This document shows positions 1,189 through 62,264 of a stretch of 64,000 nt of DNA, piece by piece; position 1 is the stretch's first letter; each line of letters starts with the position of its first letter. The DNA is from Minisyncoccia bacterium. GTDB lineage: Bacteria; Patescibacteriota; Minisyncoccia; SW-4-49-11. The translations under genes and the position numbers were made by a program. The notes under the pieces were generated by a model, which was not told where the DNA came from, made no database searches, and saw only the letters and a program-made list of their open reading frames with translations. Location: positions 45,187 through 109,186 of the forward strand of contig JBIIRM010000003.1 in assembly GCA_044341565.1 (NCBI GenBank). Reading direction: 5' to 3'.

Positions 1189-3066
1189 ATAAAAATTAAA
1201 TCTCTCCAAATCTCAAATATACTTAGCTTCCCCCATGTCGAAAATATAGAAGTTGCTCCAAAAATCATCTTTGATAAAGATTTAAGTATTCTTATTGGTC
1301 AAAATGGTTCAGGAAAATCAACAGTCCTAGAAATAATAAACTTTATTTTTAGGAGAGTGATTTTTATTCCATATAACAGAAATACAGATTTATATACTAA
1401 AAGAAACACAATTAATTCTAATGAAAAGAAGCAAATATTATCACAAATACATAATATTTCATACTATCATGGTTTTCGTCTTGATAGGAATTACGATTTT
1501 GAAAATAATGAACAAAAAATACGAGTTGTTGTTGAGTTGGATAATATTGATTTAGATAATATTGCACATCTTAAAAATAATACAGACCAGTTATCACCAA
1601 TAATTGATATGTATTCGGCTGAGCAAATGTTTGGAGATGGGGTAATACAAGAGGAGTATCAATTAGATATTATCTTAAATAGTACAAATAAAACCTATAT
1701 CGTCGAAACTAATCAAGATATTGGATATACTTATTTAAGAGCATATAATCTATATAAAGAGATGATAGAAATATATAATGAAGAGAACTTTGATGCTCCA
1801 ATCAAAAATTTAGCTGAATCATTTTCATTGATTGGGGGATACAGGAATTATAATTCTTATGCTACTCATGTTTCTCTTGGTGCTGGAGAAACCTCAATAA
1901 AACAAATTCAGGAGATTAGGGTTTCTGAGTCTTCAAGGAGTGCAAATTCTGTAGAAAATACTGAGCCTTCCATTTTTAGTTTAGTTCGATTGAAAATGGC
2001 TGGTCAATGTTTTGACTTAATAGGTACTAATGCAAATCAGCAAGAATGTGAAGCTACTGCAAATAATATGGATTTTATAAGAAGTATCAATGATAAACTC
2101 AAAATTATTAATCTTAGAGTAGAAATTAAGCTTCTTGATTATTCACGCTGGAATTTTACTTTTTCTTTTGTTGATATCAAAAGAGGTAGAGATATTTCTG
2201 ATATAAATGTTTTGAGTGCTGGGCAAAAGGCAATTATTCATTTAATATTTGAGGCGTATGGACGAGGTTATTTACAAGGTGGGTTAGTGATTATCGATGA
2301 GCCTGAAATACATTTACATTATCAGTTTCAAAGTGAATATATTCGTGTGATAGAGAAATTAAACAGCGAACAGGATTGTCAGTACATCTTAGTTACGCAT
2401 TCTGAATCTCTCATAAATTCGGAGACTATAGATAATGTTGTACGCTTATCTCTGGATGAAAAGGGTTATACTAAAGTTAATCAACCAGTCATTAAAACTG
2501 ATCAAAAATGGCTTGTTAAGATTTTAGATAATATGCGTTCTACTCACGCATTTTTTGGAAGTAAGATTTTATTGGTAGAAGGAGAAACAGATCGTTATTT
2601 TTTCCGTGAGGTTCTAGGAGAGATAGAGGAGAAGTTAGGGAAAGGATTAATTCAAGATATAACTATATTATCTGTTGATAGTAAAAATAATTTTACAGAG
2701 TGGAAAAACTTATTCAGTACCTTTGGGCTAAAAGCTTTTTGTATTGGTGATTTAGATTATGCATTTATTTTTTATCCTAAGGAGAAACAAAGTAAGATTA
2801 AAAACTTAAAACAAGTTACCGAGTTTTTAAATGATCATCCAGACGTTATTTCAAAGATAGAAGGAGAGTATCAAAATGGAACATATATTTTAAAAGAGGG
2901 GGATTTAGAGATGTATTTAAATATTAAAAAAGATCTTAGTAACGTAATATATTTTTGTCAGAACAATCTCAAAACATATCTTGCAGATAGTAAAAACTCC
3001 AAAGTACAAGAATTGAAAAGAATTATGGCTTGTATTACGGGTGAGAATGAAGCTGATTTGTGGTGA
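1189..3066 (+). CDS. OLD-family ATP-dependent endonuclease (ABC-type ATPase head + C-terminal Toprim)
   Basis: Walker A GQNGSGKST lies at 1303-1329, upstream of the GTG at 1357 called by the ORF track. The ABC signature is LSAGQK, Walker B is LVIIDEPEIHLH and the H-loop is ILVTHSE. The Toprim motifs are LLVEGETD and CIGDLD. The in-frame reading has no ATG/GTG/TTG between the TAA at 1177-1179 and the Walker A, so the placed start (ATA 1189, which would give MKIKSLQISNILSF) is provisional. Confidence 0.75.
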   Translation: MKIKSLQISNILSFPHVENIEVAPKIIFDKDLSILIGQNGSGKSTVLEIINFIFRRVIFIPYNRNTDLYTKRNTINSNEKKQILSQIHNISYYHGFRLDRNYDFENNEQKIRVVVELDNIDLDNIAHLKNNTDQLSPIIDMYSAEQMFGDGVIQEEYQLDIILNSTNKTYIVETNQDIGYTYLRAYNLYKEMIEIYNEENFDAPIKNLAESFSLIGGYRNYNSYATHVSLGAGETSIKQIQEIRVSESSRSANSVENTEPSIFSLVRLKMAGQCFDLIGTNANQQECEATANNMDFIRSINDKLKIINLRVEIKLLDYSRWNFTFSFVDIKRGRDISDINVLSAGQKAIIHLIFEAYGRGYLQGGLVIIDEPEIHLHYQFQSEYIRVIEKLNSEQDCQYILVTHSESLINSETIDNVVRLSLDEKGYTKVNQPVIKTDQKWLVKILDNMRSTHAFFGSKILLVEGETDRYFFREVLGEIEEKLGKGLIQDITILSVDSKNNFTEWKNLFSTFGLKAFCIGDLDYAFIFYPKEKQSKIKNLKQVTEFLNDHPDVISKIEGEYQNGTYILKEGDLEMYLNIKKDLSNVIYFCQNNLKTYLADSKNSKVQELKRIMACITGENEADLW

Positions 3067-34605: not shown

Positions 34606-37029
34606 ATGATAATTGTACTCTATGTACTGCTGGTGCTATGGGTTATTGCTATAACATTTATTATAGCAACGGTTATTATACATCCATTTTGGGAAAAACG
34701 TCGTATTAATCGGGGACTTGCAATGACACAATATCAAATTATTGTACCTCGCAATATCCCTAATCCAGAAGCTAATATCAAAGATTTAATTAGTGTGATG
34801 GAACAGGTATATGCGGGGTTCTCTTATCTCAAATTAGAGAAATTAGTCAATCGTCTTAGATATGGGAGTCCTTATATTTCTCTTGAAATTGTAAGCCCTA
34901 CCGAGCGAGATGAAATTAATTTTTATATTGGAGTTCCAAAAGGGTATGAATCTATTTTTGAAAAACAAATTCATGGAGTATATCCAGAAGCTGAGCTGAA
35001 GCATATTACTGATTATAATGTATTAATCCCTGAAGGAGAAATTCGGGCCGGATACTTACAGCTTAAAAAACCCTATATTCTCCCTATTAGAACCTATAAA
35101 GAATTAGAAACTAATCCTTTGAATGTGATTACCTCGGCTCTGTCTAAAATTCAGGAAGATGAAAGTGCAGTGGTACAGATTTTAATACAAAGAGTATCGG
35201 ATGATTGGAGTAGTAGTGGTAAGAAGGTAGTGAAGAAAATGCAAAAAGGAGAAAGCTTCAAAAATGCATATAATGAAGTTTTTGGGGGGATTGATAAGCA
35301 ATTTTTGAAAACTTTAGGTTCTGCTACAAAGTCTAAATCAACGGAAGTCTCTGAGCCAAAAATGTTAAGTCCTCAAGAGTCTATTATGATGGAGAAAATT
35401 AGTCAAAAAACAGGTAAAATTGCCTATGCGACTAATATTAGATTATTAACTATATCTCGAGATAGCCAAAGAGCAGATGTATTATTTGATCAATTAGAGG
35501 GTGCTTTTTCTCAATTTGCCAATGGAGATCTGAATCAATTTAAAGTAATCAAATATCCTATAAAGAATATTAAACAATTTATTTATACCTTTATATTCCG
35601 ATTATTCTCAGTAAAAGAATCAATGTTATTAAATAGTGAGGAATTGACGAGTATATATCATATTCCTGCTGTGGGAGTGGAGACTCCAAAAGTAACTTGG
35701 ATTACTTCTAAAACCTCACATCCTCCAGTTGATTTGCCAAAGGAAGGATTATTATTAGGGAAGAATATATATCGTGGTGAAGAAATTGAGGTAAGAATTG
35801 CAGAAGAGGATAGGAGACGTCATATGTATCTTATTGGACAAACAGGAACAGGTAAAAGTTCTTTGATGAAAAAAATGATACAAGAAGATTTGCAAGCAGG
35901 ACATGGTCTTGCTCTATTAGATCCTAATGGAGATTTTGCCGTGGAAGTATTGGGTATGATTCCAGAGCATCGTATGCAAGATGTGATTTATTTTAATCCT
36001 GCTGATACTAATTATCCTATGGGACTTAATATTCTGGAAGCCCGCACACATGAGGAAAAAGATTTCTTGATACAAGAAATGATTTCTATTTTTTATAAAT
36101 TGGTATCTGATCCAAGTATGATAGGGCCAATATTTGAGCATAATATGCGAATGGCAATGTCAGCTTTAATGTCAGATGTCAATAATCCAAGAACTCTAGT
36201 AGAAATACCTCTTATGTTTACTGATGAGGCATTTAGGAGACAAGTATTATTAACAGTTGACGATCCTGTCATACGGCATTTTTGGGAAAAAGAATTTCCT
36301 GCTACACAAAAAGGTTCACAAGCAGGGGATACACTTGGGTATCTATTAAGTAAATTGGGCCGATTTATTGAAAATGAAATGGTGCGTAATATTATTGGGC
36401 AATCTCGTTCAGCCTTTGATTTTCAAGATATTATGAATTCAGGTAAAATTTTGATTGGTAATCTTTCTAAAGGAGGGTTGGGGGAACAAAATAGTAATTT
36501 ATTAGGTATGTTGCTGGTATCCAAATTACAAATGGCAGCCTTTAAGCGAAATGAAATTCCAGAAGAACAGAGAAGAGATTTTTATTTGTATTTAGATGAG
36601 TTTCAAAACTTTACCACAGATAGTATATCTACCATTCTCTCTGAGGCTCGCAAATATCGATTATGTCTCATATTGGCCCATCAATATATAGGACAATTAT
36701 CTGAGGGGATAAAGAATGCAGTATTTGGGAATGTGGGTACTGTGGTAAGTTTCCGTATTGGATCCGAGGATGCTGAAATTATTGCTCAGCGTATGCAACC
36801 ATATTATAGTGCTGAGGATTTAGTGTCAATTGACAATCTAAAGTCAGTAATAACCTTGATGATACAGGGTAAGACCAGTAAAGCTTTTAATATGGATATT
36901 ATATTCGCTGATAAGACGAATGCATCTTTACAACAACGGGTAATATTAGAGTCTCGCAATAAATATGCCAAGCCGGCAGCTGAAATACGAGCGGATATAT
37001 CGAGTCGTACGCAAAGTATGTTCGAATAG
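34606..37029 (+). CDS. FtsK/HerA-superfamily P-loop ATPase, VirB4/TraC- or VirD4/TraG-like (type IV secretion-type)
   Basis: N-terminal TM helix. Walker A IGQTGTGKSS around residue 412 followed by LALLDPNGDF, and Walker B FYLYLDEFQNF. 807 aa. Confidence 0.6.
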   Translation: MIIVLYVLLVLWVIAITFIIATVIIHPFWEKRRINRGLAMTQYQIIVPRNIPNPEANIKDLISVMEQVYAGFSYLKLEKLVNRLRYGSPYISLEIVSPTERDEINFYIGVPKGYESIFEKQIHGVYPEAELKHITDYNVLIPEGEIRAGYLQLKKPYILPIRTYKELETNPLNVITSALSKIQEDESAVVQILIQRVSDDWSSSGKKVVKKMQKGESFKNAYNEVFGGIDKQFLKTLGSATKSKSTEVSEPKMLSPQESIMMEKISQKTGKIAYATNIRLLTISRDSQRADVLFDQLEGAFSQFANGDLNQFKVIKYPIKNIKQFIYTFIFRLFSVKESMLLNSEELTSIYHIPAVGVETPKVTWITSKTSHPPVDLPKEGLLLGKNIYRGEEIEVRIAEEDRRRHMYLIGQTGTGKSSLMKKMIQEDLQAGHGLALLDPNGDFAVEVLGMIPEHRMQDVIYFNPADTNYPMGLNILEARTHEEKDFLIQEMISIFYKLVSDPSMIGPIFEHNMRMAMSALMSDVNNPRTLVEIPLMFTDEAFRRQVLLTVDDPVIRHFWEKEFPATQKGSQAGDTLGYLLSKLGRFIENEMVRNIIGQSRSAFDFQDIMNSGKILIGNLSKGGLGEQNSNLLGMLLVSKLQMAAFKRNEIPEEQRRDFYLYLDEFQNFTTDSISTILSEARKYRLCLILAHQYIGQLSEGIKNAVFGNVGTVVSFRIGSEDAEIIAQRMQPYYSAEDLVSIDNLKSVITLMIQGKTSKAFNMDIIFADKTNASLQQRVILESRNKYAKPAAEIRADISSRTQSMFE

Positions 37030-41260: not shown

Positions 41261-43654
41261 CTATTGTGCTCGGCTCCCATCAGTATTAAGACGAGCTATA
41301 TATTGCGCCGCTACTCCTTGATATTGAGTAAAACTTCCTCCTACTACAAATTTACCATCATTTTGTGTTATTATACTATACACCATCTGATCAAATCCCG
41401 TGCCTATACTAAAACTATAGTCCCTACTCCCATTACTATTTAGTCGTATAATATAATTAGCTCCTACTCCTTGATATGTACCAAAATCTCCCCCTATTAT
41501 TAATTTCCCATCACTCTGCTGTATAATACCTCTTACTGGAACAATCAAAAGATTATTAAAGCCTGTACCTATAGCAAAAGTATTATCTGGAGACCCATCA
41601 CTGTTTAGTCGTATAATATAGTTAGCTCCTGCTCCCTGATAAGTAGTAAAAGTTCCACCCAATACTAATTTTCCATCGCTTTGCTGTATAACCGCGTATG
41701 GTACATTATTAAATCCCGTACCTATATTAAAAGTATTATCTTGAGATCCATTACTATTTAACCGTGTTATTCTATTTGTAGACACACCCTGATACGTACT
41801 AAATGACCCTCCAATAATAATTTTCCCATCACTTTGTTGGTAAACCTTGTTTACCGTACCATTAAATCCTGTACCTATATTAAAACTCGTATCTATACTC
41901 CCATCAGCATTTAACCTTATGATTCCATTTGCTGATACTCCTTGATAAGTGGTAAAAAAGCCACCTATAACTATTTTCCCATCACTTTGTTGTATAATGC
42001 TCATTACGCTACTATTAAATCCTGTACCTATATTAAAAGTATTGTCTCTACTTCCATCACTATTTAGTCGTATAATATAATTGGCTGCCACTCCTTGATA
42101 AGTAGTGAAATCTCCCCCTAGTACTATTTTACCATCACTTTGTTGTATAATACTCGCAGGAGGATTATTAAACCCTACCCCTATATTAAAGCTACTGTCT
42201 CTTGTTCCATCATTATTTAAGCGTGTTATTTTATTAACTGACACCCCTTGATAAGTGGTAAAAAAGCCACCTATAACTAATTTCCCATCACTTTGTTGTA
42301 TTATACTCTGAGTAGAACTATTAAACCCAGTAAAACCTAGAGGTGGGGTTTGAATTCCTCTGTTGACACAACGGAAACCAATACGGCTATTAAAATCAGA
42401 GGGAATATACGACATATTGAGCGAAAAAACTCCTGTAAAGCTATGATCAGACAACTGGCTACCACGAATGAAACCGTAAATGGTATTATTTCCAGGAGTC
42501 CCATCACTCCATACTGCTCCCACATTCTGGCTAGTATCCCAACTTGTATTACTTGCTCTATAATCATCATAATTAAGGATTCCATTAGTGGTTAACAGAG
42601 TAAATGGTCTCCAACCACCAAATCCTGGACTTGCTGTTATTGTTGGTTGATCAGCTCCAGTTATAGTGTTATTAGTCCATTCCCATACATTTCCACTTAA
42701 GTCCCATATTACTGATCCATTGGATAAAGTATGTGTTCTTTTTTGTATACTAGGAGATATGTCCCCTGTCCCGCTATAGGGAGCTGTATCAATTCCTGCT
42801 ACTAATCCTAAGGCTGGAGTATTATCACTATGTCCTCTCCATAATCCTCCCGACCCTACTGTTCCACCTGTCCAATTACTTGGCTGAGCCTCTATATTAC
42901 GGGCTATTGTCATCCATTCTTTATTCGTAATAAGACTTCCTCCAGCATTAATACAATATGTAGCTGCCGTTATCTGGCTTATCTTTACTATTGGATAACC
43001 ACTTGCTACACTAGCTACAGCCCTACCATTAGCTGATGTAGTTGCGGTTATAGTATTGTCTATGGTATTTGCCCCTTCGTCGGGTGTAGTTAGTCCTACT
43101 GTAGGAGAGGCTATTGCTACTGCCTTAGCCTCATATTTCATCACACAAAAGTCCTCAGTATTATAAAGACTATTTCCTGGGACTTTAATATATCCTGTTG
43201 GACACACAATATTGGTATAGATAGATTGTCCACGAGTAAAAATGGTATTATCAACTGAATTGACTCCACTAATGGTGAAGCGCCCTATATCATCGGTAAC
43301 AATAGAGAAACCACTTAAGACGGGATCAGTCCCATAAAAGGGTATGCTTTGAATATATGTAGGGACAAGAAAAGTAATATCAATACAACCTGCTCCAGGT
43401 GTCTTACAGATAGGAGTGGTGGAATTAGCAGTAAGGGCAGATATTTGTGGGTGATGAGATCCTGTCTTGAGAGCATATTGTTCTAATGCCTGATAAATAG
43501 TCAGGGCATCGGCTTTGCGTTCATTATCATTTGCTTCCGAAATAATTCTGCTGGGGTTTAGAGCATATAATACTGTGGCAAATAGAATAGCAAGAAGAGC
43601 AATGACGAGAAGTATCTCGAGTAGGGTAAAACCTTTTTTTGTAGTGTGTTTCAT
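41261..43654 (-). CDS. type IV pilin-like protein with FGE-sulfatase-like (C-type-lectin-fold) domain and 8 C-terminal delta-60/DUF5122-type beta-propeller repeats
   Basis: Prepilin-type N-terminus KKGFTLLEILLVIALLAIL. The mid region has NVWEWT ... GFRCV (FGE-sulfatase family signature). The C-terminus has ~48-aa tandem repeats FNIGTGFN..IIQQSDGKIVIGGFFTTYQGVS.N.IIRLN.DGS.D, which are also tandem at DNA level (~41300-42330). Confidence 0.85.
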   Translation of the reverse strand: MKHTTKKGFTLLEILLVIALLAILFATVLYALNPSRIISEANDNERKADALTIYQALEQYALKTGSHHPQISALTANSTTPICKTPGAGCIDITFLVPTYIQSIPFYGTDPVLSGFSIVTDDIGRFTISGVNSVDNTIFTRGQSIYTNIVCPTGYIKVPGNSLYNTEDFCVMKYEAKAVAIASPTVGLTTPDEGANTIDNTITATTSANGRAVASVASGYPIVKISQITAATYCINAGGSLITNKEWMTIARNIEAQPSNWTGGTVGSGGLWRGHSDNTPALGLVAGIDTAPYSGTGDISPSIQKRTHTLSNGSVIWDLSGNVWEWTNNTITGADQPTITASPGFGGWRPFTLLTTNGILNYDDYRASNTSWDTSQNVGAVWSDGTPGNNTIYGFIRGSQLSDHSFTGVFSLNMSYIPSDFNSRIGFRCVNRGIQTPPLGFTGFNSSTQSIIQQSDGKLVIGGFFTTYQGVSVNKITRLNNDGTRDSSFNIGVGFNNPPASIIQQSDGKIVLGGDFTTYQGVAANYIIRLNSDGSRDNTFNIGTGFNSSVMSIIQQSDGKIVIGGFFTTYQGVSANGIIRLNADGSIDTSFNIGTGFNGTVNKVYQQSDGKIIIGGSFSTYQGVSTNRITRLNSNGSQDNTFNIGTGFNNVPYAVIQQSDGKLVLGGTFTTYQGAGANYIIRLNSDGSPDNTFAIGTGFNNLLIVPVRGIIQQSDGKLIIGGDFGTYQGVGANYIIRLNSNGSRDYSFSIGTGFDQMVYSIITQNDGKFVVGGSFTQYQGVAAQYIARLNTDGSRAQ

Positions 43655-56139: not shown

Positions 56140-57387
56140 ATGAAAAAAATGCAAAAAAAAGGATTTACATTATTAGAGGTATTACTGGTTATCGCTTTAA
56201 TAGGGATATTATTGACTATTATATTGGTAGTCCTCAATCCAAGGGAGCGTTTTGCTGTAGCTCGTAATGATGTTAGGAAATCTGATATACAAAAATTAGA
56301 AGGAGCTCTTACCCAATATCGCCTACAAGAGGGTTCATATCCAGCTGGACTTACTTCAACCTTACAAGAAATTTGTGACCCAGATATTAGTAATCCTTCC
56401 GTAAATTGTGGTAGCTATATTAACTTATCATCTCTTGTCCCAACTTATATTCAATCAATACCACAAGATCCCCAAGACACTGATTCAACAGGAGGTTCTG
56501 GATATCAAGTTGCGGTAGATGTGACACGAAATGTAGTAGCACTAAAAGCAATACAGGCAGAATCCTCAGCTACAATATCTATTAATAACCCCTTATCATC
56601 GGCTCTATCAAGTACAGCGGTGAATACACCCCTTGCAGCAAGTAACCCTCCCATAACTAGTCAAACTCCACCTTTAGTACCTAATACAGGAGATGTATCG
56701 CTACTGCTCCACGCGGATGGCAGTTTTGCAGACAGTAGTCCTAATAATTTTGTTCCGATGAGTACCGGAGGGAGTGGCGGGGGTGTGCAAATTAGCACTA
56801 CTCAGAGCAAGTTTGGTGGTTCAAGCCTATTCTTCCCAGATGTGGACATAAACAATGCCCCCTATCCCGCGTTGTCATATTGGACACCTGAGTCTGGTGG
56901 ATATAATTATTTCCCTGAGTTTAGCCTAGGAAATACTTATACAATTGAAGCATGGGTCTACGCAATTACACCCAGGGGAGGAATAGTTGAGAGGCTTGCT
57001 GGAGCTTTTTCACAGGAATATGGGTACTCTATGACGTTTGAAGGAACACGAATAAAATGTTACTTTTACGGAACCTTCGACGGTTCAGGATTTCAACAGT
57101 ATATCTTAGCTCCTTCTGCGTTTCCCACCTCAACCTGGGTTCATGTAGCAATGGTTCGTAGTGGAACAAACGGAGCCTTATACATTAACGGTGAGTCAGT
57201 TGGTACTATAAATAATCTTAACACTCCGCAAGGAAGTGTCAAGCCGGTTCTTATAGGTTCAAAAAGTGTTGGAAGCGGAGGAAATTATAACACTATCTTC
57301 TTCAACGGTTACATAGATGATCTACGTATCACTAAAGGAGTTGCCATATACACCTCTAACTTCACCCCACCTACTTCAGCTTTTTGA
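56140..57387 (+). CDS. type IV pilin-like protein with C-terminal LamG-like (concanavalin A-type lectin/glucanase) domain
   Basis: Prepilin N-terminus KKGFTLLEVLLVIALIGIL. C-terminal LLLHADGSF..KFGGSSLFF....FTIEAWVY....WVHVAMV..G.LYINGESVG....FNGYIDDLRI is the LamG_3 pattern. Confidence 0.8.
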   Translation: MKKMQKKGFTLLEVLLVIALIGILLTIILVVLNPRERFAVARNDVRKSDIQKLEGALTQYRLQEGSYPAGLTSTLQEICDPDISNPSVNCGSYINLSSLVPTYIQSIPQDPQDTDSTGGSGYQVAVDVTRNVVALKAIQAESSATISINNPLSSALSSTAVNTPLAASNPPITSQTPPLVPNTGDVSLLLHADGSFADSSPNNFVPMSTGGSGGGVQISTTQSKFGGSSLFFPDVDINNAPYPALSYWTPESGGYNYFPEFSLGNTYTIEAWVYAITPRGGIVERLAGAFSQEYGYSMTFEGTRIKCYFYGTFDGSGFQQYILAPSAFPTSTWVHVAMVRSGTNGALYINGESVGTINNLNTPQGSVKPVLIGSKSVGSGGNYNTIFFNGYIDDLRITKGVAIYTSNFTPPTSAF

Positions 57388-57450: not shown

Positions 57451-57633
57451 TTGATCAGAGGTGATGGGTCTCGAGATAATACCTTTAATATCGGGGCAGG
57501 ATTTATGAGTACTGCTCAGACTATTATACAACAAAATGATGGGAACTTCGTTATAGGTAGCTATTTTGATACTTATCAAGGAGTAGCAGCTTATATAGCT
57601 CGTCTTAATACTGATGGAAGTAGAGCTCAGTAA
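57451..57633 (+). pseudogene. orphan 3' fragment of a delta-60 beta-propeller repeat gene (paralogous to the 3' end of 41261..43654)
   Basis: It encodes a single repeat ending ...YQGVAAYIARLNTDGSRAQ*, almost identical at protein and DNA level to the C-terminus ...YQGVAAQYIARLNTDGSRAQ* of the 797-aa pilin-like gene. No prepilin N-terminus. Confidence 0.55.
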
Positions 57634-58369: not shown

Positions 58370-59665
58370 ATGGCAAATTCACTTATATCAAAACTAAAAT
58401 CATATTATCATATTGGGATTACCTATGGAGCTCATATTATAACGGGTCGCCCAAGTGAATCAATGATAGTAATAGGAATTACGGGAACTAAGGGTAAGAC
58501 GAGTACTGTCTATGCTCTCTATCAAGTGCTTATCAAATTAGGGCTTAAGGTGGGATTGTCCTCTTCCGTATATACCAGTAATGGTAAAGAATTAATCAAA
58601 AATCCTATTCGCAATTCCATGCCAGGAAGAGGCCGAATTCATCAATTAATGAGAGAATCTCAACAAAATGGGGCGACTGTATTCATTGTAGAGGTTACTA
58701 GTGAGGGATTGGCTCAAAATCGTCATCTTGGTATTCATTTTGACTCTGTTGTAATTACCAATTTATATCCAGAGCATTTGGAAGCTCATGGAGGTTTTGA
58801 GAATTATAAAAGAGCTAAAGGAATATTATTCAACGTTTTTGATACAGCTAAGACTAAAACTGTTCAAGGCAAAGTCATTCAGCCTATATCTTGGGTGAAT
58901 CAAGATGATGAACATCAAGAATATTATCGCAACTTAACACAAAAAACAGTATATTCAATTGGGAAATCAGATAAGGCTCGTATACAAATGAAATCGATTG
59001 AATCAGATGAAAATGGATTGGTATTCACCTATACTGATAAAAATCTTAATACATCCTATCAAGTTACAACCCCAGTTCTAGGAGAATTTATGGGATATAA
59101 TCTGTTATTTGTAATTGGTATAGCTCATTGGTTAGGTTTTGAATATGAAGCTATTAACAAAACTCTAGCTACATTAAATGATATTCCGGGGCGTATGAAT
59201 AAAATTGCTACAAATCCAACAATTTTTGTTGATTATGCCCATATTCCAGAAGCTTTAGAAAAAGTATATCAAACTATTAATTTAAGTTTTAAGGGTAAGG
59301 GAAAAACTATTGCCATATTAGGTTCTTGTGGTGGGGGAAGAGATACTTGGAAGCGATTCCCAATGGGAAAAATTGCAGCCCAGATGAATGATTATGTTAT
59401 TGTAACAGATGAAGATCCCTATGATGAAAATCCGCAGTCTATTATTGATGAGGTATTCTCAGGGGTACTTGAGTCAGGAAAAATTGAGAATACGAATGCC
59501 TGGAAAGTATTATCTCGCCGAGATGCTATTATAAAAGCACTTGCTTTAGCTGAGAGAGAAGATGTGATTATTGTAACAGGGAAGGGGAGTGAAACTAGTA
59601 TTATGAGAGCCAAGGGAGAAAAAGAAAATTGGAATGATACCGAGGTTATTTTAAGCTTATTATGA
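58370..59665 (+). CDS. Mur ligase family protein (central + C-terminal domains)
   Basis: ATP-binding GITGTKGKTST and DYAHIPEAL. There is no N-terminal UDP-binding domain, so the specific member (MurE/MurF/MurT-like) is not resolved. Confidence 0.7.
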   Translation: MANSLISKLKSYYHIGITYGAHIITGRPSESMIVIGITGTKGKTSTVYALYQVLIKLGLKVGLSSSVYTSNGKELIKNPIRNSMPGRGRIHQLMRESQQNGATVFIVEVTSEGLAQNRHLGIHFDSVVITNLYPEHLEAHGGFENYKRAKGILFNVFDTAKTKTVQGKVIQPISWVNQDDEHQEYYRNLTQKTVYSIGKSDKARIQMKSIESDENGLVFTYTDKNLNTSYQVTTPVLGEFMGYNLLFVIGIAHWLGFEYEAINKTLATLNDIPGRMNKIATNPTIFVDYAHIPEALEKVYQTINLSFKGKGKTIAILGSCGGGRDTWKRFPMGKIAAQMNDYVIVTDEDPYDENPQSIIDEVFSGVLESGKIENTNAWKVLSRRDAIIKALALAEREDVIIVTGKGSETSIMRAKGEKENWNDTEVILSLL

Positions 59666-59717
59666 ACATAAAATAATCATATGGTATACTAAAAAATAAG
59701 TAACCAATATATATAGT

Positions 59718-60983
59718 ATGCAAAATAAAAAAGAAAAAGGCTTTACATTATTGGAGATATTACTAGTAATAGCAGTAATAGGAATATTAGCAGCTATAGT
59801 ATTAATTGCTATTAATCCTAATAAACAAATAGTGCAAGCTCGTAATACTGCTAGGAAAGTTGATATTAATACATTAGAAAAAGCCTTAAGACAATATTCT
59901 ATAGATAATGCAGGTCAGCTCCCAAATGTAATACTGAATCAATATAAAGTAATTTGTAGACAAGGTATTACTGATCCTTCTTGTATTAATCTTGATGTTT
60001 TGGTACCCACATATATTGCGGCTATTCCTCGGGATACACAATCAAATACTATTAATACAGGATATTCGGTAGCAGTAAATCCCAATAATACGAATGTTTC
60101 TATTGTTGCAAATTTAGCTGAACAGTTTGTAGAAATTTCAATTAATAAATTTAATGAAGGAAGTGGCGCTTCGGCTTTATTAGCAGCTAATTCTTGTCAA
60201 TCTATTTTGTCTTCTGGATACTCAACTGGAAATGGAGTATATTGGATTAATTTACCTACTTCAGGTGCTACACAGATATATTGTCTTATGGATACATTAT
60301 TTGATGGTGGTGGCTGGATGTTGGCTATGAAAGCTACTCGCGGCACTACATTTAATTATGACTCTGCTCATTGGACTACAACAACAACATTAAATCCCAC
60401 CGATCTAACGAGAAACGATGCGGATGCTAAGTATCATACTATGAACTATTACCCCACCAGGGATTTAATGGCCGTGTGGCCAGATATCCCAACAGCTGGA
60501 GGAAGTATTCCTAATACTGGAAGCTGGACTTGGTTGGAAAAGAATTTTTACAATGGTGGTAATCGAACTACTCCTATAAATTTCTTTAGCACAATGGGAA
60601 CATATAATAATGGCGGAACACCTAGTACGGGTGATTATGGCGGCTATTTTATTAAAGACGCTAAGACATTTAGTGGCTGGGCAAATGGTGTGTTTTCGAG
60701 CCAGGTAGATATTAGATTTTATGGATTCAACTTTATCAATCATCCTAATTATGGATTTAATGGTAGAGTCCGTTGGGGATTTGGATGGAATGAGAATGGT
60801 GAGGGACTATATACTAGTCCTGCTACACTAGCCACCGGCTGGGCACCTGGGTCGGATGACGTAAGTGGTGGTATAGGTATGGCAAGTCAATTTGGTAGTT
60901 ATTCAGCTGGAGATATAATTAACTGCTGTCAAGATAATACAGGTATAAACCGATCCGCTAGAGTTGAATTATATATTAGATAA
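59718..60983 (+). CDS. type IV pilin-like protein fused to a fibrinogen-related (FReD-like) domain
   Basis: Prepilin N-terminus KEKGFTLLEILLVIAVIGIL. ANSCQSILSSGYSTGNGVYWINLPTSGATQIYCLMDTLFDGGGWMLAMK parallels the fibrinogen C-terminal-domain opening (C..I...G...SG.Y.I........VYCDM.TDGGGWTV). Later FReD landmarks are less clear. Confidence 0.6.
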   Translation: MQNKKEKGFTLLEILLVIAVIGILAAIVLIAINPNKQIVQARNTARKVDINTLEKALRQYSIDNAGQLPNVILNQYKVICRQGITDPSCINLDVLVPTYIAAIPRDTQSNTINTGYSVAVNPNNTNVSIVANLAEQFVEISINKFNEGSGASALLAANSCQSILSSGYSTGNGVYWINLPTSGATQIYCLMDTLFDGGGWMLAMKATRGTTFNYDSAHWTTTTTLNPTDLTRNDADAKYHTMNYYPTRDLMAVWPDIPTAGGSIPNTGSWTWLEKNFYNGGNRTTPINFFSTMGTYNNGGTPSTGDYGGYFIKDAKTFSGWANGVFSSQVDIRFYGFNFINHPNYGFNGRVRWGFGWNENGEGLYTSPATLATGWAPGSDDVSGGIGMASQFGSYSAGDIINCCQDNTGINRSARVELYIR

Positions 60984-60992
60984 CAAAATTAT

Positions 60993-62264
60993 ATGGCAAA
61001 ATTTAAGATTAAAGGAAAGCAATTTGGTAAAAAGGGTTTAATTCCCGTATATGGAGCCAAGAATTCAGCAATAAAATTATTACCAGCTACACTCTTGATT
61101 GATGGAGTAATAACTCTTCATAATATTCCCGATATTGATGATATTCGCGATATGATTGCGATATTGATTGCACTGGGGGCAAAGGTAGATAAAATCGCCC
61201 AACATTCTTATACTATTGATACCACTACTATTGATAATAATAAAATTCCTATTGAACTTGCAATCAAAATGCGAGCCTCATTTTTGTTTATTGCTCCATT
61301 ATTAATTCGTTTTGGAGAAGTTGAATTTCCTCATCCTGGAGGAGATGCAATTGGTCGTAGGCCAATTGATATGACATTAGAAAGTCTTAGATTAATGGGA
61401 GCTGAAGTGATTGAGGATAATCAAAAATATATATTCCGATTACCCAATAAAAGTCTTAAAGGAATAGAATATATATTCAAATGGATTTCGCATACATCTA
61501 CAGAGAATTTAATTATGGCGGCGGTAAAGGCAGAAGGGAAGACAATCATTTATAATGCTGCTCTTGAGCCAGAAATTACTGCTCTTTGTGATATGTTACG
61601 AGGAGCGGGAGCTCAGATTACTGGAGATGGTACCTCACAAATTGAAATTGAAGGAGTTCAAGAATTATCCTCAGTAGAATATACTAATATACCAGATAGA
61701 CTTGAGGCAGGTACATTTGCAATTTTAGCGGCTCTCACCCGAAGTAATATTATGGTTACTGATATTAATCCTAATCATTTGAGAGTATTCTGGAAATTCC
61801 TTGATATGGCGGGTATACAATATGAATTAGGGGATGACTTTGTACATATTATTCCTCATCATAATAGCTATAAGGCTCTACAGCTTAAAACACATGAATA
61901 TCCTGGTTTTGTAACTGATTTACAAGCCCCATTTACCCTTTTATTAACACAGGCTATTGGTACTTCGGTAGTGCAGGAGACTATATTTGATGGAAGATTA
62001 TTTTATACGGATACTTTGAATCAAATGGGTGCTAATATCATTATGTGTGATCCCTATCGCGTAGTAGTAAATGGACCTACTCAATTATATGGACGCAAAA
62101 TAGAAAGCCCTGATGTAAGAGCTGGCATGACATTTTTATTAGCAGCTTTAATTGCTGAGAGAGATAGTGAAATTCATAATATTTATCATATTGATAGAGG
62201 ATATGAGAAAATAGAAGAGCGCCTCACCAATATAGGCTTTGATATTATACGAGAAAATACATAG
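60993..62264 (+). CDS. murA: UDP-N-acetylglucosamine 1-carboxyvinyltransferase
   Basis: EPSP-synthase fold. GKNSAIKLL at the N-terminus and typical MurA length (423 aa). Confidence 0.9.
   Translation: MAKFKIKGKQFGKKGLIPVYGAKNSAIKLLPATLLIDGVITLHNIPDIDDIRDMIAILIALGAKVDKIAQHSYTIDTTTIDNNKIPIELAIKMRASFLFIAPLLIRFGEVEFPHPGGDAIGRRPIDMTLESLRLMGAEVIEDNQKYIFRLPNKSLKGIEYIFKWISHTSTENLIMAAVKAEGKTIIYNAALEPEITALCDMLRGAGAQITGDGTSQIEIEGVQELSSVEYTNIPDRLEAGTFAILAALTRSNIMVTDINPNHLRVFWKFLDMAGIQYELGDDFVHIIPHHNSYKALQLKTHEYPGFVTDLQAPFTLLLTQAIGTSVVQETIFDGRLFYTDTLNQMGANIIMCDPYRVVVNGPTQLYGRKIESPDVRAGMTFLLAALIAERDSEIHNIYHIDRGYEKIEERLTNIGFDIIRENT

Follow-up and report, generated by a model that had tools for sequence, protein, structure and literature searches.

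The 64,000-nucleotide (nt) stretch of contig JBIIRM010000003.1 analyzed here (the window) carries at 59718..60983 on the forward strand an open reading frame (ORF) that is probably a chromosomal gene of a freshwater Candidatus Saccharibacteria (Candidate Phyla Radiation, CPR/Patescibacteria) coding for a modular type IV pilin with a glycan-binding head of the fibrinogen-related domain (FReD) fold, the specificity of which would be retargeted by cassette exchange with phage. The ORF list returned the boundaries given in a preliminary description of the window, with an ATG start and 421 encoded residues. The architecture proposed there, i.e., prepilin leader, pilin module, linker and FReD-like module, and the idea of a pilus-displayed lectin are supported by the database matches and predicted structures presented below (feature positions are compiled in Table 1). 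Modular lectin pilins, lectin-like pilins as proposed host-binding factors of Saccharibacteria and FReD-like proteins in phages are already known. As far as we found, three aspects are new: the family phrog_1325, structurally nearest to intelectins, forms the head of CPR and DPANN pilins; nucleotide-level evidence points to recent exchange of the distal part between a gene of a phage tail-fibre cluster and a chromosomal pilin gene; and an allelic cassette appears to have been replaced between near-identical strains. No prior report of modules shared by phage fibres and CPR pilins was found in the literature searched.

The N-terminal half of the protein is a pilin. Its prepilin N-terminus was recognized by both Pfam and NCBIfam, with N_methyl (PF07963) scoring 32.6 bits (cutoff 21.2) over residues 4-29 and TIGR02532 scoring 29 bits (cutoff 16.3) over residues 7-29. 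In the motif scan the leader MQNKKEKG is followed by FTLLEILLVIAVIGILAAIVL, which gives the canonical G|FTLLE motif, and prepilin peptidase would be expected to cut after G8, leaving F+1 and E+5. The mature module consists of a hydrophobic alpha-1 helix and a small beta-sheet head with a C80-C89 pair. In the full-length AlphaFold2 (AF2) model, of which the pilin half alone was usable, residues 11-140 were folded with pLDDT values of 85-98 (helices 11-32 and 34-63; strands 77-80, 113-120 and 127-131), so that the long alpha-1 helix packed on a small sheet of three to four strands that defines pilins was recovered. Moreover, residues 1-150 share 43-56% identity over the full length with stand-alone pilins of about 148 residues from many Patescibacteria, and phmmer detected geopilin and GspG matches among PDB sequences. 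From about residues 145-148 into the start of the lectin module, that is in the linker, pLDDT was 34-45, and the first residues of this linker/module region vary across the family. The gene product thus fits the definition of a modular type IV pilin, with a pilin at residues 9-144, a linker and an independently folding head of 263 residues: its carrier is a complete pilin of ordinary size onto which 277 residues are grafted C-terminally, as in the modular pilins described by Raynaud et al. 2021 (PMC8179133). Heads of this type are found also on non-pilin carriers and in phages.

The head begins with a FReD signature and continues, in the predicted structure, as a complete FReD-type fold. The segment quoted in the preliminary description, ANSCQSILSSGYSTGNGVYWINLPTSGATQIYCLMDTLFDGGGWMLAMK (residues 159-207), follows the pattern SC..I...GVY.I......YC.M....GGGW, and its likeness to FReD openings exceeds chance: the NCBIfam model NF040941 ('GGGWT_bact', fibrinogen-like YCDxxxxGGGW) matched residues 159-202 with 41.9 bits (cutoff 30, E=7.5e-11, profile positions 1-45 of 46), and in the phmmer search of PDB sequences ficolin-3 matched residues 158-211 (E=0.0046). 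Both cysteines of the canonical first FReD disulfide are present as C162 and C189, and their pairing is predicted. The conserved motifs of the whole module are KAT.GTTF, FSSQ..FYGFN, RWGFGWNEN, DD.SGGIG, CC and INRSARVE.Y.R. An AF2 model of residues 145-421, built on 120 homologues, reached a pLDDT of 90.1 and a pTM of 0.90 and displayed the overall three-subdomain FReD fold. Foldseek searches of the PDB with this model gave 25 matches at E<=1e-3, and all 50 matches listed were FReD-fold proteins aligned over about 270-330 columns; the structural match beyond the short N-terminal motif, on which the preliminary description had made its assignment depend, is therefore present. That description had named ficolin and tachylectin 5A for structural comparison. 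The top matches were instead intelectins (X-type lectins), namely XEEL (5zc0/4wmo), human intelectin-1 (4wmq/6usc) and a lamprey lectin (7e1e), with E-values of 3e-7 to 5e-6 and TM-scores of 0.46-0.52, followed by ficolins, FIBCD1, angiopoietin-2, tenascin, tachylectin 5A and fibrinogen with E-values of 1e-4 to 4e-3 and query-normalised TM-scores of 0.23-0.39.

Membership in a named sequence family is a different matter. The Fibrinogen_C model PF00147, suggested earlier as a check, gave no match at E<=1 on the product (gathering threshold 22 bits). Since most genuine intelectins of the protein database likewise lack a PF00147 match, this result does not speak against the FReD fold. Two archaeal members of the head family, on the contigs L014 and L015, pass PF00147 with 32-35 bits, only over profile positions 4-58 of 221. 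When a profile of the head family was searched against PDB sequences, 7e1e, the lamprey intelectin-type lectin, was the sole match (E=0.0012), in the same region as the FReD opening, and hhalign against a profile of 34 intelectin sequences gave a probability of 74% and E=2.8e-5 with a confident core of 43 columns, corresponding to the FReD opening only. Default hhalign realignment had extended this match to 90-93 columns; as 43 columns were confident without realignment, intelectin homology past the opening was dropped, together with the provisional visual pairing of NTEHH/IGGGG and SDDVS/GGIG. Profile methods thus detected no homology over the region specific to intelectins, with its ligand-Ca2+ residues (N260, E262, H263 and E274 in human intelectin-1). 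Invariant acidic/amide motifs of the head are N358-E359-N360, D381 and D399. Judged from the models, the head is a FReD-superfamily fold with intelectins as its nearest solved relatives; by sequence it is not demonstrably a member of the Fibrinogen_C or the intelectin family.

Relatives of the head were found in phages and on cell surfaces, and the family appears from these matches to be mainly viral. The head matches phrog_1325 with E=1.1e-30 and 108 bits over domain residues 5-223. A search with residues 143-421 returned 917 proteins at E<=1e-3, the best 120 of which share 54-86% identity over about 250 residues, none of them Pfam-annotated on the head domain. Profile searching of 1.84 billion cluster representatives detected 315 clusters (at 50% identity) at E<=1e-30 and 1,875 at E<=1e-3; in view of this number and of the existence of an NCBIfam bacterial model for the motif, the preliminary description overstated the case in calling such domains rare in bacteria. 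Among 185,579 species-representative genomes the head domain occurs at 45 loci only. It is almost always located at the extreme C-terminus, on carriers of 250 to 5,290 residues. The T4-like cyanomyoviruses S-MbCM7/ACG-2014h, S-H9-1, S-H9-2, P-TIM40 and P-HM2 possess it with 38-52% identity over 90-95% of the module, always C-terminally, in 'hypothetical proteins' encoded directly downstream of tail-fibre genes and beside 'tail fiber assembly' genes; these 'T4-GC_349' proteins (S-MbCM7_084, S-MbCM7_086, P-TIM40 gp043, P-HM2 E3SSV2) differ from the protein studied here by short fibre-type N-termini and by lacking both a pilin and the N-terminal FReD cysteine. In BFVD, P-HM2 E3SSV2 matched with a TM-score of 0.78, along with cyanophage proteins labelled 'Fibrinogen C-terminal domain-containing' or 'tail fiber-like', and IMG/VR contributed 117 viral contigs with relatives of 43-67% identity. 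P0004 and P0005, which are among the closest relatives from metagenomes, are encoded in arrays of uniform direction together with DUF2793, Phage_tail_APC, fibre-sized (1,100-1,250 residues) and LamG proteins, and these arrays match tail-fibre, fibre-assembly and baseplate PHROGs. In Synechococcus phage S-MbCM7 (L001), S-MbCM7_084 and S-MbCM7_086 are tandem paralogues (7743-8714 and 9084-10016) directly after a giant tail-fibre gene, each followed by a small ORF of about 120 codons, an arrangement that suggests a duplicated unit of a lectin and a small partner, possibly a chaperone.

On the cellular side, ORF extraction identified prepilin carriers of the head in Saccharibacteria and Paceibacterota (L003, L005), carriers with pilin- or PilX-like N-termini in Parcubacteria and Paceibacteria (L004, L006), a carrier with a class-III-signal-like N-terminus in DPANN (L014), signal-peptide proteins with PA14/GLEYA domains in Bacteroidota and giant proteins in Actinomycetota. 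As prepilins account for 3 of the 120 top database clusters, the head is to be regarded as a tip module common to phage fibre clusters and cell-surface adhesins, and its fusion to a pilin as a minority architecture of CPR and DPANN. The archaeal proteins (L014, 5560-6735; L015, 5641-6753) stem from metagenome-assembled genomes (MAGs) of Nanoarchaeota-type and other DPANN archaea, and the combination of a pilin with a FReD-like head may therefore exist in archaeal episymbionts, too. Furthermore, a Flavobacterium MAG contig (L020) and an IMG/VR contig (L120), both with the head domain, have the same size of 44,823 bp, which implies that some of the Bacteroidota MAG matches, including signal-peptide PA14 proteins of about 485 residues, may be phage or prophage contigs.

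Comparison of the gene with its closest relatives revealed that the distal part of the head has a different history from the rest. The three pilin-fused versions, i.e., that of the window, P0013 from the sister-strain contig L053 and P0037, are discordant in the relatedness of their modules: in the pilin module, the window and P0013 are 94.4% identical and P0013 and P0037 67.4%, whereas in the lectin module these values are 75.3% and 91.4%, respectively. At the nucleotide level, divergence from L053 amounts to 5.6% in 59642-60361 and 43.8% in 60362-60926, where all indels are found, and is followed by 60927-61015 (gene end, spacer and start of murA) with zero mismatches (Fisher p=7e-65). Residues 145-215 are 90.1% identical to P0013 and 56% to P0002, while residues 216-411 are 88.3% identical to P0002 and 57.5% to P0013; accordingly, the bootstrap nearest neighbour was P0013 for the first part (199/200) and P0002 for the second (200/200). 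P0002 is a non-pilin protein of 286 residues that matches phrog_1325 (E=2.5e-31) and is encoded on the contig L054 between the C-terminus of a fibre-type protein (phrog_17490 at 6e-40, in addition to tail-fibre PHROGs) and a LamG-like gene, in the same order as in the L048 phage module. Within the core of the exchanged tract, 119 of the 120 nt at 60603-60722 are identical to this fibre-cluster gene. The replaced segment, with a G+C content of 0.418, resembles the phage gene (0.41) and departs from the pilin part (0.294) and from the window as a whole (0.358). The N-terminal FReD cysteine was found in 3/3 Saccharibacteria, 3/4 DPANN and 13/13 actinobacterial proteins as compared to 0/116 phage-type top matches, and the head thus reads as a 'cellular-type', cysteine-bearing opening joined to a 'phage-type' distal part. 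From these comparisons we conclude that 60362-60926 has been replaced by a cassette with phage-like sequence.

The crossover points fall on the best-conserved family motifs, GGGWM.AMKAT.GTTFNY and GINRSARVE.Y.R, which points to these motifs as recombination anchors around a variable core. This core includes the loop of residues 293-305, which is deleted in P0013 and P0037, was the sole stretch with pLDDT below 50 in the domain model (residues 155-158 of that model) and is a candidate specificity loop. In T-even phages with their mosaic gp37/gp38 fibre cassettes and in Neisseria with pilE/pilS gene conversion, the distal adhesin part is likewise swapped by homologous recombination at conserved flanks. 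The present case differs from both in pairing a gene of a phage fibre cluster with the gene of a cellular pilin. Other sources of variation were rejected: neither a template/variable repeat pair nor a reverse transcriptase, as expected for a diversity-generating retroelement, was found in the window, and a tblastn search of the window for silent pilS-like cassettes gave no second copy of the lectin module. For the LamG tip of a second pilin in the window, no recent exchange with phage is proposed, its identity to LamG proteins of phage modules being merely 27-36%.

The gene is flanked by a Mur ligase gene and murA and belongs with them to a co-directional housekeeping array. The order of LamG-pilin, Rpe, Mur ligase, a pilin of the type studied here and MurA is kept in the more distant Saccharibacterium L051, the pilin module of which is 64% identical, and the gene order around it is also kept in L056-L058, which are independent assemblies of the same species. 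Because synteny is kept across these genomes and assemblies, the gene is a resident of the chromosome and not part of a prophage. The lectin module is 100% identical at the protein level to that on the contig CAZPCB010000002.1 (L003; 234 kb), which belongs to a MAG labelled 'uncultured Candidatus Saccharibacteria bacterium', with 4 nt differing between the two genes. A scan for promoters and terminators around the gene gave nothing above the shuffled expectation.

Following this, we propose that prepilin peptidase processes the protein and that the alpha-1 helix carries it into a type IV pilus (T4P), where it would occupy a tip or sparse position by analogy with PilB and PilC of Streptococcus sanguinis (PMC8179133); incorporation of this kind is probable given the bulk of the head. 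The intelectin-like head of about 30 kDa on its short flexible linker would be the adhesive part, binding, possibly in a Ca2+-dependent manner, a surface glycan of the bacterium to which the episymbiont attaches. Glycan binding is suggested by the nearest folds, which are mostly glycan or acetyl-group lectins, by co-occurrence with PA14, GLEYA and LamG domains, and by the sugar-inhibitable, T4P-dependent host binding of cultured Saccharibacteria (PMC11623550), which use T4P and lectin-like minor pilins for this purpose (PMC11623550, PMC9894109). An adhesin role is also in line with the position of the same domain at the extreme C-terminus of surface carriers elsewhere and beside fibre-assembly genes in phages. 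Specificity would shift by cassette exchange through homologous recombination rather than by point mutation, with the conserved motifs flanking the variable two-thirds of the head as crossover anchors and with homologous phrog_1325 genes of receptor-binding type in phage tail-fibre modules as part of the donor pool.

Several observations weigh against this proposal. Some FReDs, such as those of angiopoietin and tenascin, bind proteins rather than glycans. The acidic/amide motifs of the head could not be aligned by profile methods with the Ca2+- and ligand-site residues of ficolins or intelectins, and phrog_1325 is a PHROG family without functional annotation. T4P assembly genes were absent among the window ORFs scanned against Pfam. 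The tip location is an analogy only, as the pilin module resembles major-pilin-sized subunits. Finally, the donor contig L054 is just 2.4 kb long, with neither a capsid nor a terminase gene seen on it, and its phage nature is deduced from fibre-like PHROG matches and the gene order shared with L048.

Two other roles of the protein have to be considered. Its N-terminus might serve only as an export signal and membrane anchor, or form a short pseudopilus resembling that of type II secretion systems, the protein acting as a surface-anchored lectin or pseudopilin in, e.g., cell-cell aggregation or the capture of nutrient glycans. This is suggested by the lack of pilus machinery among the window ORFs scanned, by the location among cell-wall genes (Mur ligase, MurA) instead of in a pilus operon, by the type II secretion pseudopilin GspG as the best pilin-type match in NCBIfam, although it was below cutoff like that to PilA, and by the carriers on L004 and L006, whose pilin- or PilX-like N-termini lack the canonical E5 motif. 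However, we regard it as unlikely, as the motif with E+5 is canonical here, the pilin module is complete, confidently folded and close to stand-alone CPR pilins, and scattered pilin genes are usual in CPR. Moreover, the T4P machinery is a well-conserved trait of Patescibacteria, and Saccharibacteria in culture form T4P that include lectin-like minor pilins (PMC11623550). Alternatively, the head might not be a lectin but bind a protein ligand or fulfil another role, e.g., trimerisation at the tip of a fibre or pilus, as some FReDs and many phage fibre tips do. The angiopoietin-2 and tenascin FReDs among the Foldseek matches, the missing annotation of phrog_1325 and the failure of intelectin and ficolin ligand-site residues to align would fit such a role. 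We consider it equally improbable, because the best and most numerous fold matches are lectins, the head co-occurs with carbohydrate-binding modules, its invariant motifs NEN, DD.SGGIG and SAGD are typical of Ca2+/sugar sites, and sugars can inhibit the attachment of Saccharibacteria to their hosts (PMC11623550).

The divergence of 60362-60926 could in principle also result from rapid diversifying point mutation or from a chimera of metagenome assembly rather than from recombination with phage-type sequence. Host-recognition proteins do evolve fast, as illustrated by the syntenic LamG pilins of two related genomes with 34% identity, the nearest reference of the window is a co-assembled MAG, and the conserved motifs could mislead an assembler. 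Yet point mutation cannot account for 119/120 and 338/360 nt being identical to an independent contig with a phage module, and the breakpoints are sharp with indels confined to the exchanged tract. Furthermore, the chimera is present with identical flanks and differences of 4-5 nt in three single-run assemblies (SRR23548128, SRR23548130, SRR23548131), and the JGI metagenome 3300059473 contains the identical protein between the same Mur ligase and murA flanks; with the NCBI MAG, five independent assemblies from different runs and sources agree, so that an assembly artefact is ruled out and this explanation as a whole is largely refuted and very unlikely. The transfer of a FReD from eukaryotes, for which the preliminary description had suggested a test, would fit a FReD opening best known from animals and vertebrate intelectins as the closest solved structures. 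It is the least credible explanation, since likeness to animal proteins is limited to 12-17% identity over full-length Foldseek alignments or to 43 profile columns, the hundreds of close homologues (45-88% identity) all come from phages, CPR, DPANN, Bacteroidota and Actinomycetota, with phage tail-fibre-cluster proteins as the closest relatives, and the literature speculates on transfer in the opposite direction (PMC9682848).

The modular lectin pilin proposed here can be compared to several known systems. PilB and PilC of S. sanguinis, tipped by a vWA and a ConA-like lectin module, respectively, are likewise built of a prepilin leader, a small pilin, a short linker and a large adhesin that folds on its own (PMC8179133; Shahin et al. 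2023, PMC9934059), in contrast to which the present protein, known from sequence and models, has a FReD/intelectin-like head, a CPR pilin carrier and a phage-recombinant distal part. Dataset S1 of the modular-pilin survey lists prepilins with IPR002181 (fibrinogen C-terminal) for 8+2 proteins, without comment or experiment (PMC8179133). Hence, with modular lectin pilins established and this very combination already listed, the earlier characterization as an unusual adhesin design went too far; the present gene would nevertheless be missed by that survey, as Pfam does not recognize its head. For Nanosynbacter lyticus TM7x, which belongs to the same phylum and shares the lifestyle, Grossman et al. 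2024 (PMC11623550) proposed that the minor pilins PilX1 and PilX2 attach to glycans of the host cell wall by their predicted lectin heads, and the LamG-tip and propeller-tip pilins of the window parallel PilX1 (L-type lectin-like) and PilX2 (propeller lectin-like), respectively. By contrast, that study does not mention 'fibrinogen' (0 occurrences) and describes no intelectin-type head, link to phage genes or cassette exchange. With intelectins (human ITLN-1, 4WMQ/4WMY; Xenopus XEEL, 4WMO/5ZC0; lamprey LSSL, 7E1E) the head has in common the domain length of about 280 residues and the FReD opening with the cysteines of its disulfide, at merely 14-17% identity. Intelectins bind microbial surface glycans, but are secreted animal oligomers and neither pilus-borne nor fibre-associated. 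Ficolin, FIBCD1 and tachylectin-5A (PF00147), lectins for acetyl groups and glycans, share with the head the A-subdomain signature C...GVY.I...YCDM..GGGW and a fold match at E-values of 1e-4 to 1e-3; they differ in that query-normalised TM-scores reach only 0.31-0.39, the head is about 60 residues longer, and the canonical FReD P-domain motifs are not recognisable in it.

The choice of and attachment to hosts by ultrasmall episymbionts (CPR/Saccharibacteria and DPANN) are poorly understood, and work on cultured TM7x points to T4P and lectin-like pilins. The gene described here is a concrete candidate, with a well-predicted lectin head. The variable part of this head, which probably contacts the ligand, is not the same in near-identical strains and agrees at almost every nucleotide with a gene of a phage tail-fibre cluster. 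The data suggest that episymbiont pili and phage fibres share host-recognition parts. A more far-reaching idea, which we regard as possible but not quite probable, is that episymbiotic CPR, and probably DPANN, share with phages an actively exchanged pool of receptor-binding modules, mounted in the former on T4P. The ligand-contacting two-thirds of the head would have been captured recently from a phage, which may infect the host of the episymbiont and target the same glycan, the host range of the pilus would be retargeted by cassette swapping, and the module would be the prokaryotic and viral counterpart of animal intelectins. If the function suggested for the gene is correct, phage receptor-binding proteins and episymbiont pilus adhesins would form a single exchangeable module pool, hosts of uncultured CPR could be predicted by comparing their pilin heads to the fibres of phages with known host, and a function could be assigned to phrog_1325, a widespread family unannotated in cyanophages and freshwater phages and structurally closest to animal intelectins.

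Table 1. Features of the modular pilin gene and related features in the window, with positions, strand and supporting evidence.
Feature	Position	Strand	Evidence
Whole gene, 421-aa modular type IV prepilin with predicted C-terminal FReD/intelectin-like module	59718..60983	+	ORF list, Pfam, NCBIfam
Class III (prepilin) leader peptide MQNKKEKG	59718..59741	+	PF07963, TIGR02532, motif scan
Mature pilin (carrier) module, aa 9-144	59742..60149	+	Full-length AF2 model, CPR pilin homologues
Linker, aa 145-158, FNEGSGASALLAAN	60150..60191	+	Low pLDDT, variable first residues
FReD 'opening' (A-subdomain signature), aa 159-202	60192..60323	+	NF040941, ficolin-3 phmmer match, hhalign, Cys distribution
Complete lectin-like module, aa 159-421	60192..60980	+	AF2, Foldseek, BFVD, phrog_1325, conservation map
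Replaced (recombinant) segment of lectin module, aa ~216-403	60362..60926	+	Comparison with sister strain L053 (P0013 contig)
Core of exchanged tract	60543..60902	+	338/360 nt (94%) identical to L054 fibre-cluster gene; MAFFT DNA alignment
Main hypervariable, indel-rich loop, aa 293-305, MGTYNNGGTPSTG	60594..60632	+	Column entropy and gap profile of family alignment
Mur ligase gene, upstream neighbour	58370-59665	+	
murA, downstream neighbour	60993-62264	+	
Paralogous modular pilin, LamG/ConA-like tip	56140..57387	+	Laminin_G_3 E=3.7e-20, N_methyl
Third modular pilin, 797 aa, prepilin motif, FGE-sulfatase (C-type-lectin fold), seven DUF5122 beta-propeller blades	41261..43654	-	Motif scan, Pfam

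The motif scan detected exactly three full-length prepilin ORFs in the window, namely the gene discussed above, the LamG-pilin and the FGE/propeller-pilin. The latter two had also been named in the preliminary description, and they proved to be real, so that the window encodes three pilins with different tips. The N-terminal modules of the LamG-pilin and of the gene at 59718-60983 are 72-74% identical at the nucleotide level (repeats D3 and D6). In the third pilin, the propeller blades comprise 51 residues each and are encoded by 153-nt repeats; its FGE-sulfatase domain has the C-type-lectin fold that is a classic target of diversity-generating retroelements in CPR. Although located in a conserved housekeeping array, the LamG pilin (56140-57387) and its syntenic counterpart in L051 (1050-2216) share merely 34% identity overall, which implies either very rapid evolution or replacement of the pilin genes at this site. 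Immediately downstream, a 60-residue ORF at 57451-57633 (+) encodes a single DUF5122 blade (E=6e-7) in frame with the LamG pilin ending at 57387, with three stops in between, and looks like what is left, after decay, of a propeller tip that was formerly fused to the LamG pilin or encoded behind it.

Elsewhere in the window, the intergenic direct repeats 5645-5701/12878-12934 and 7094-7267/8744-8884 are 84-92% identical and lie in or around a stretch of raised G+C content (roughly 6-16 kb, 0.40-0.45 as compared to about 0.34 elsewhere). None of the Rfam families matched in this stretch, which may be an island that is mobile or was gained by horizontal transfer. At the edge of the window, a Schlafen-group-3-like helicase (72-1067, +) is encoded beside an OLD-family nuclease with AAA_15 and TOPRIM domains (1357-3066, +), and the two likely form an anti-phage defence pair. 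The 807-residue protein encoded at 34606-37029 (+) combines TrwB/VirD4-type coupling-protein and HerA-like ATPase domains, which suggests a component of a type IV secretion or conjugation-like system.

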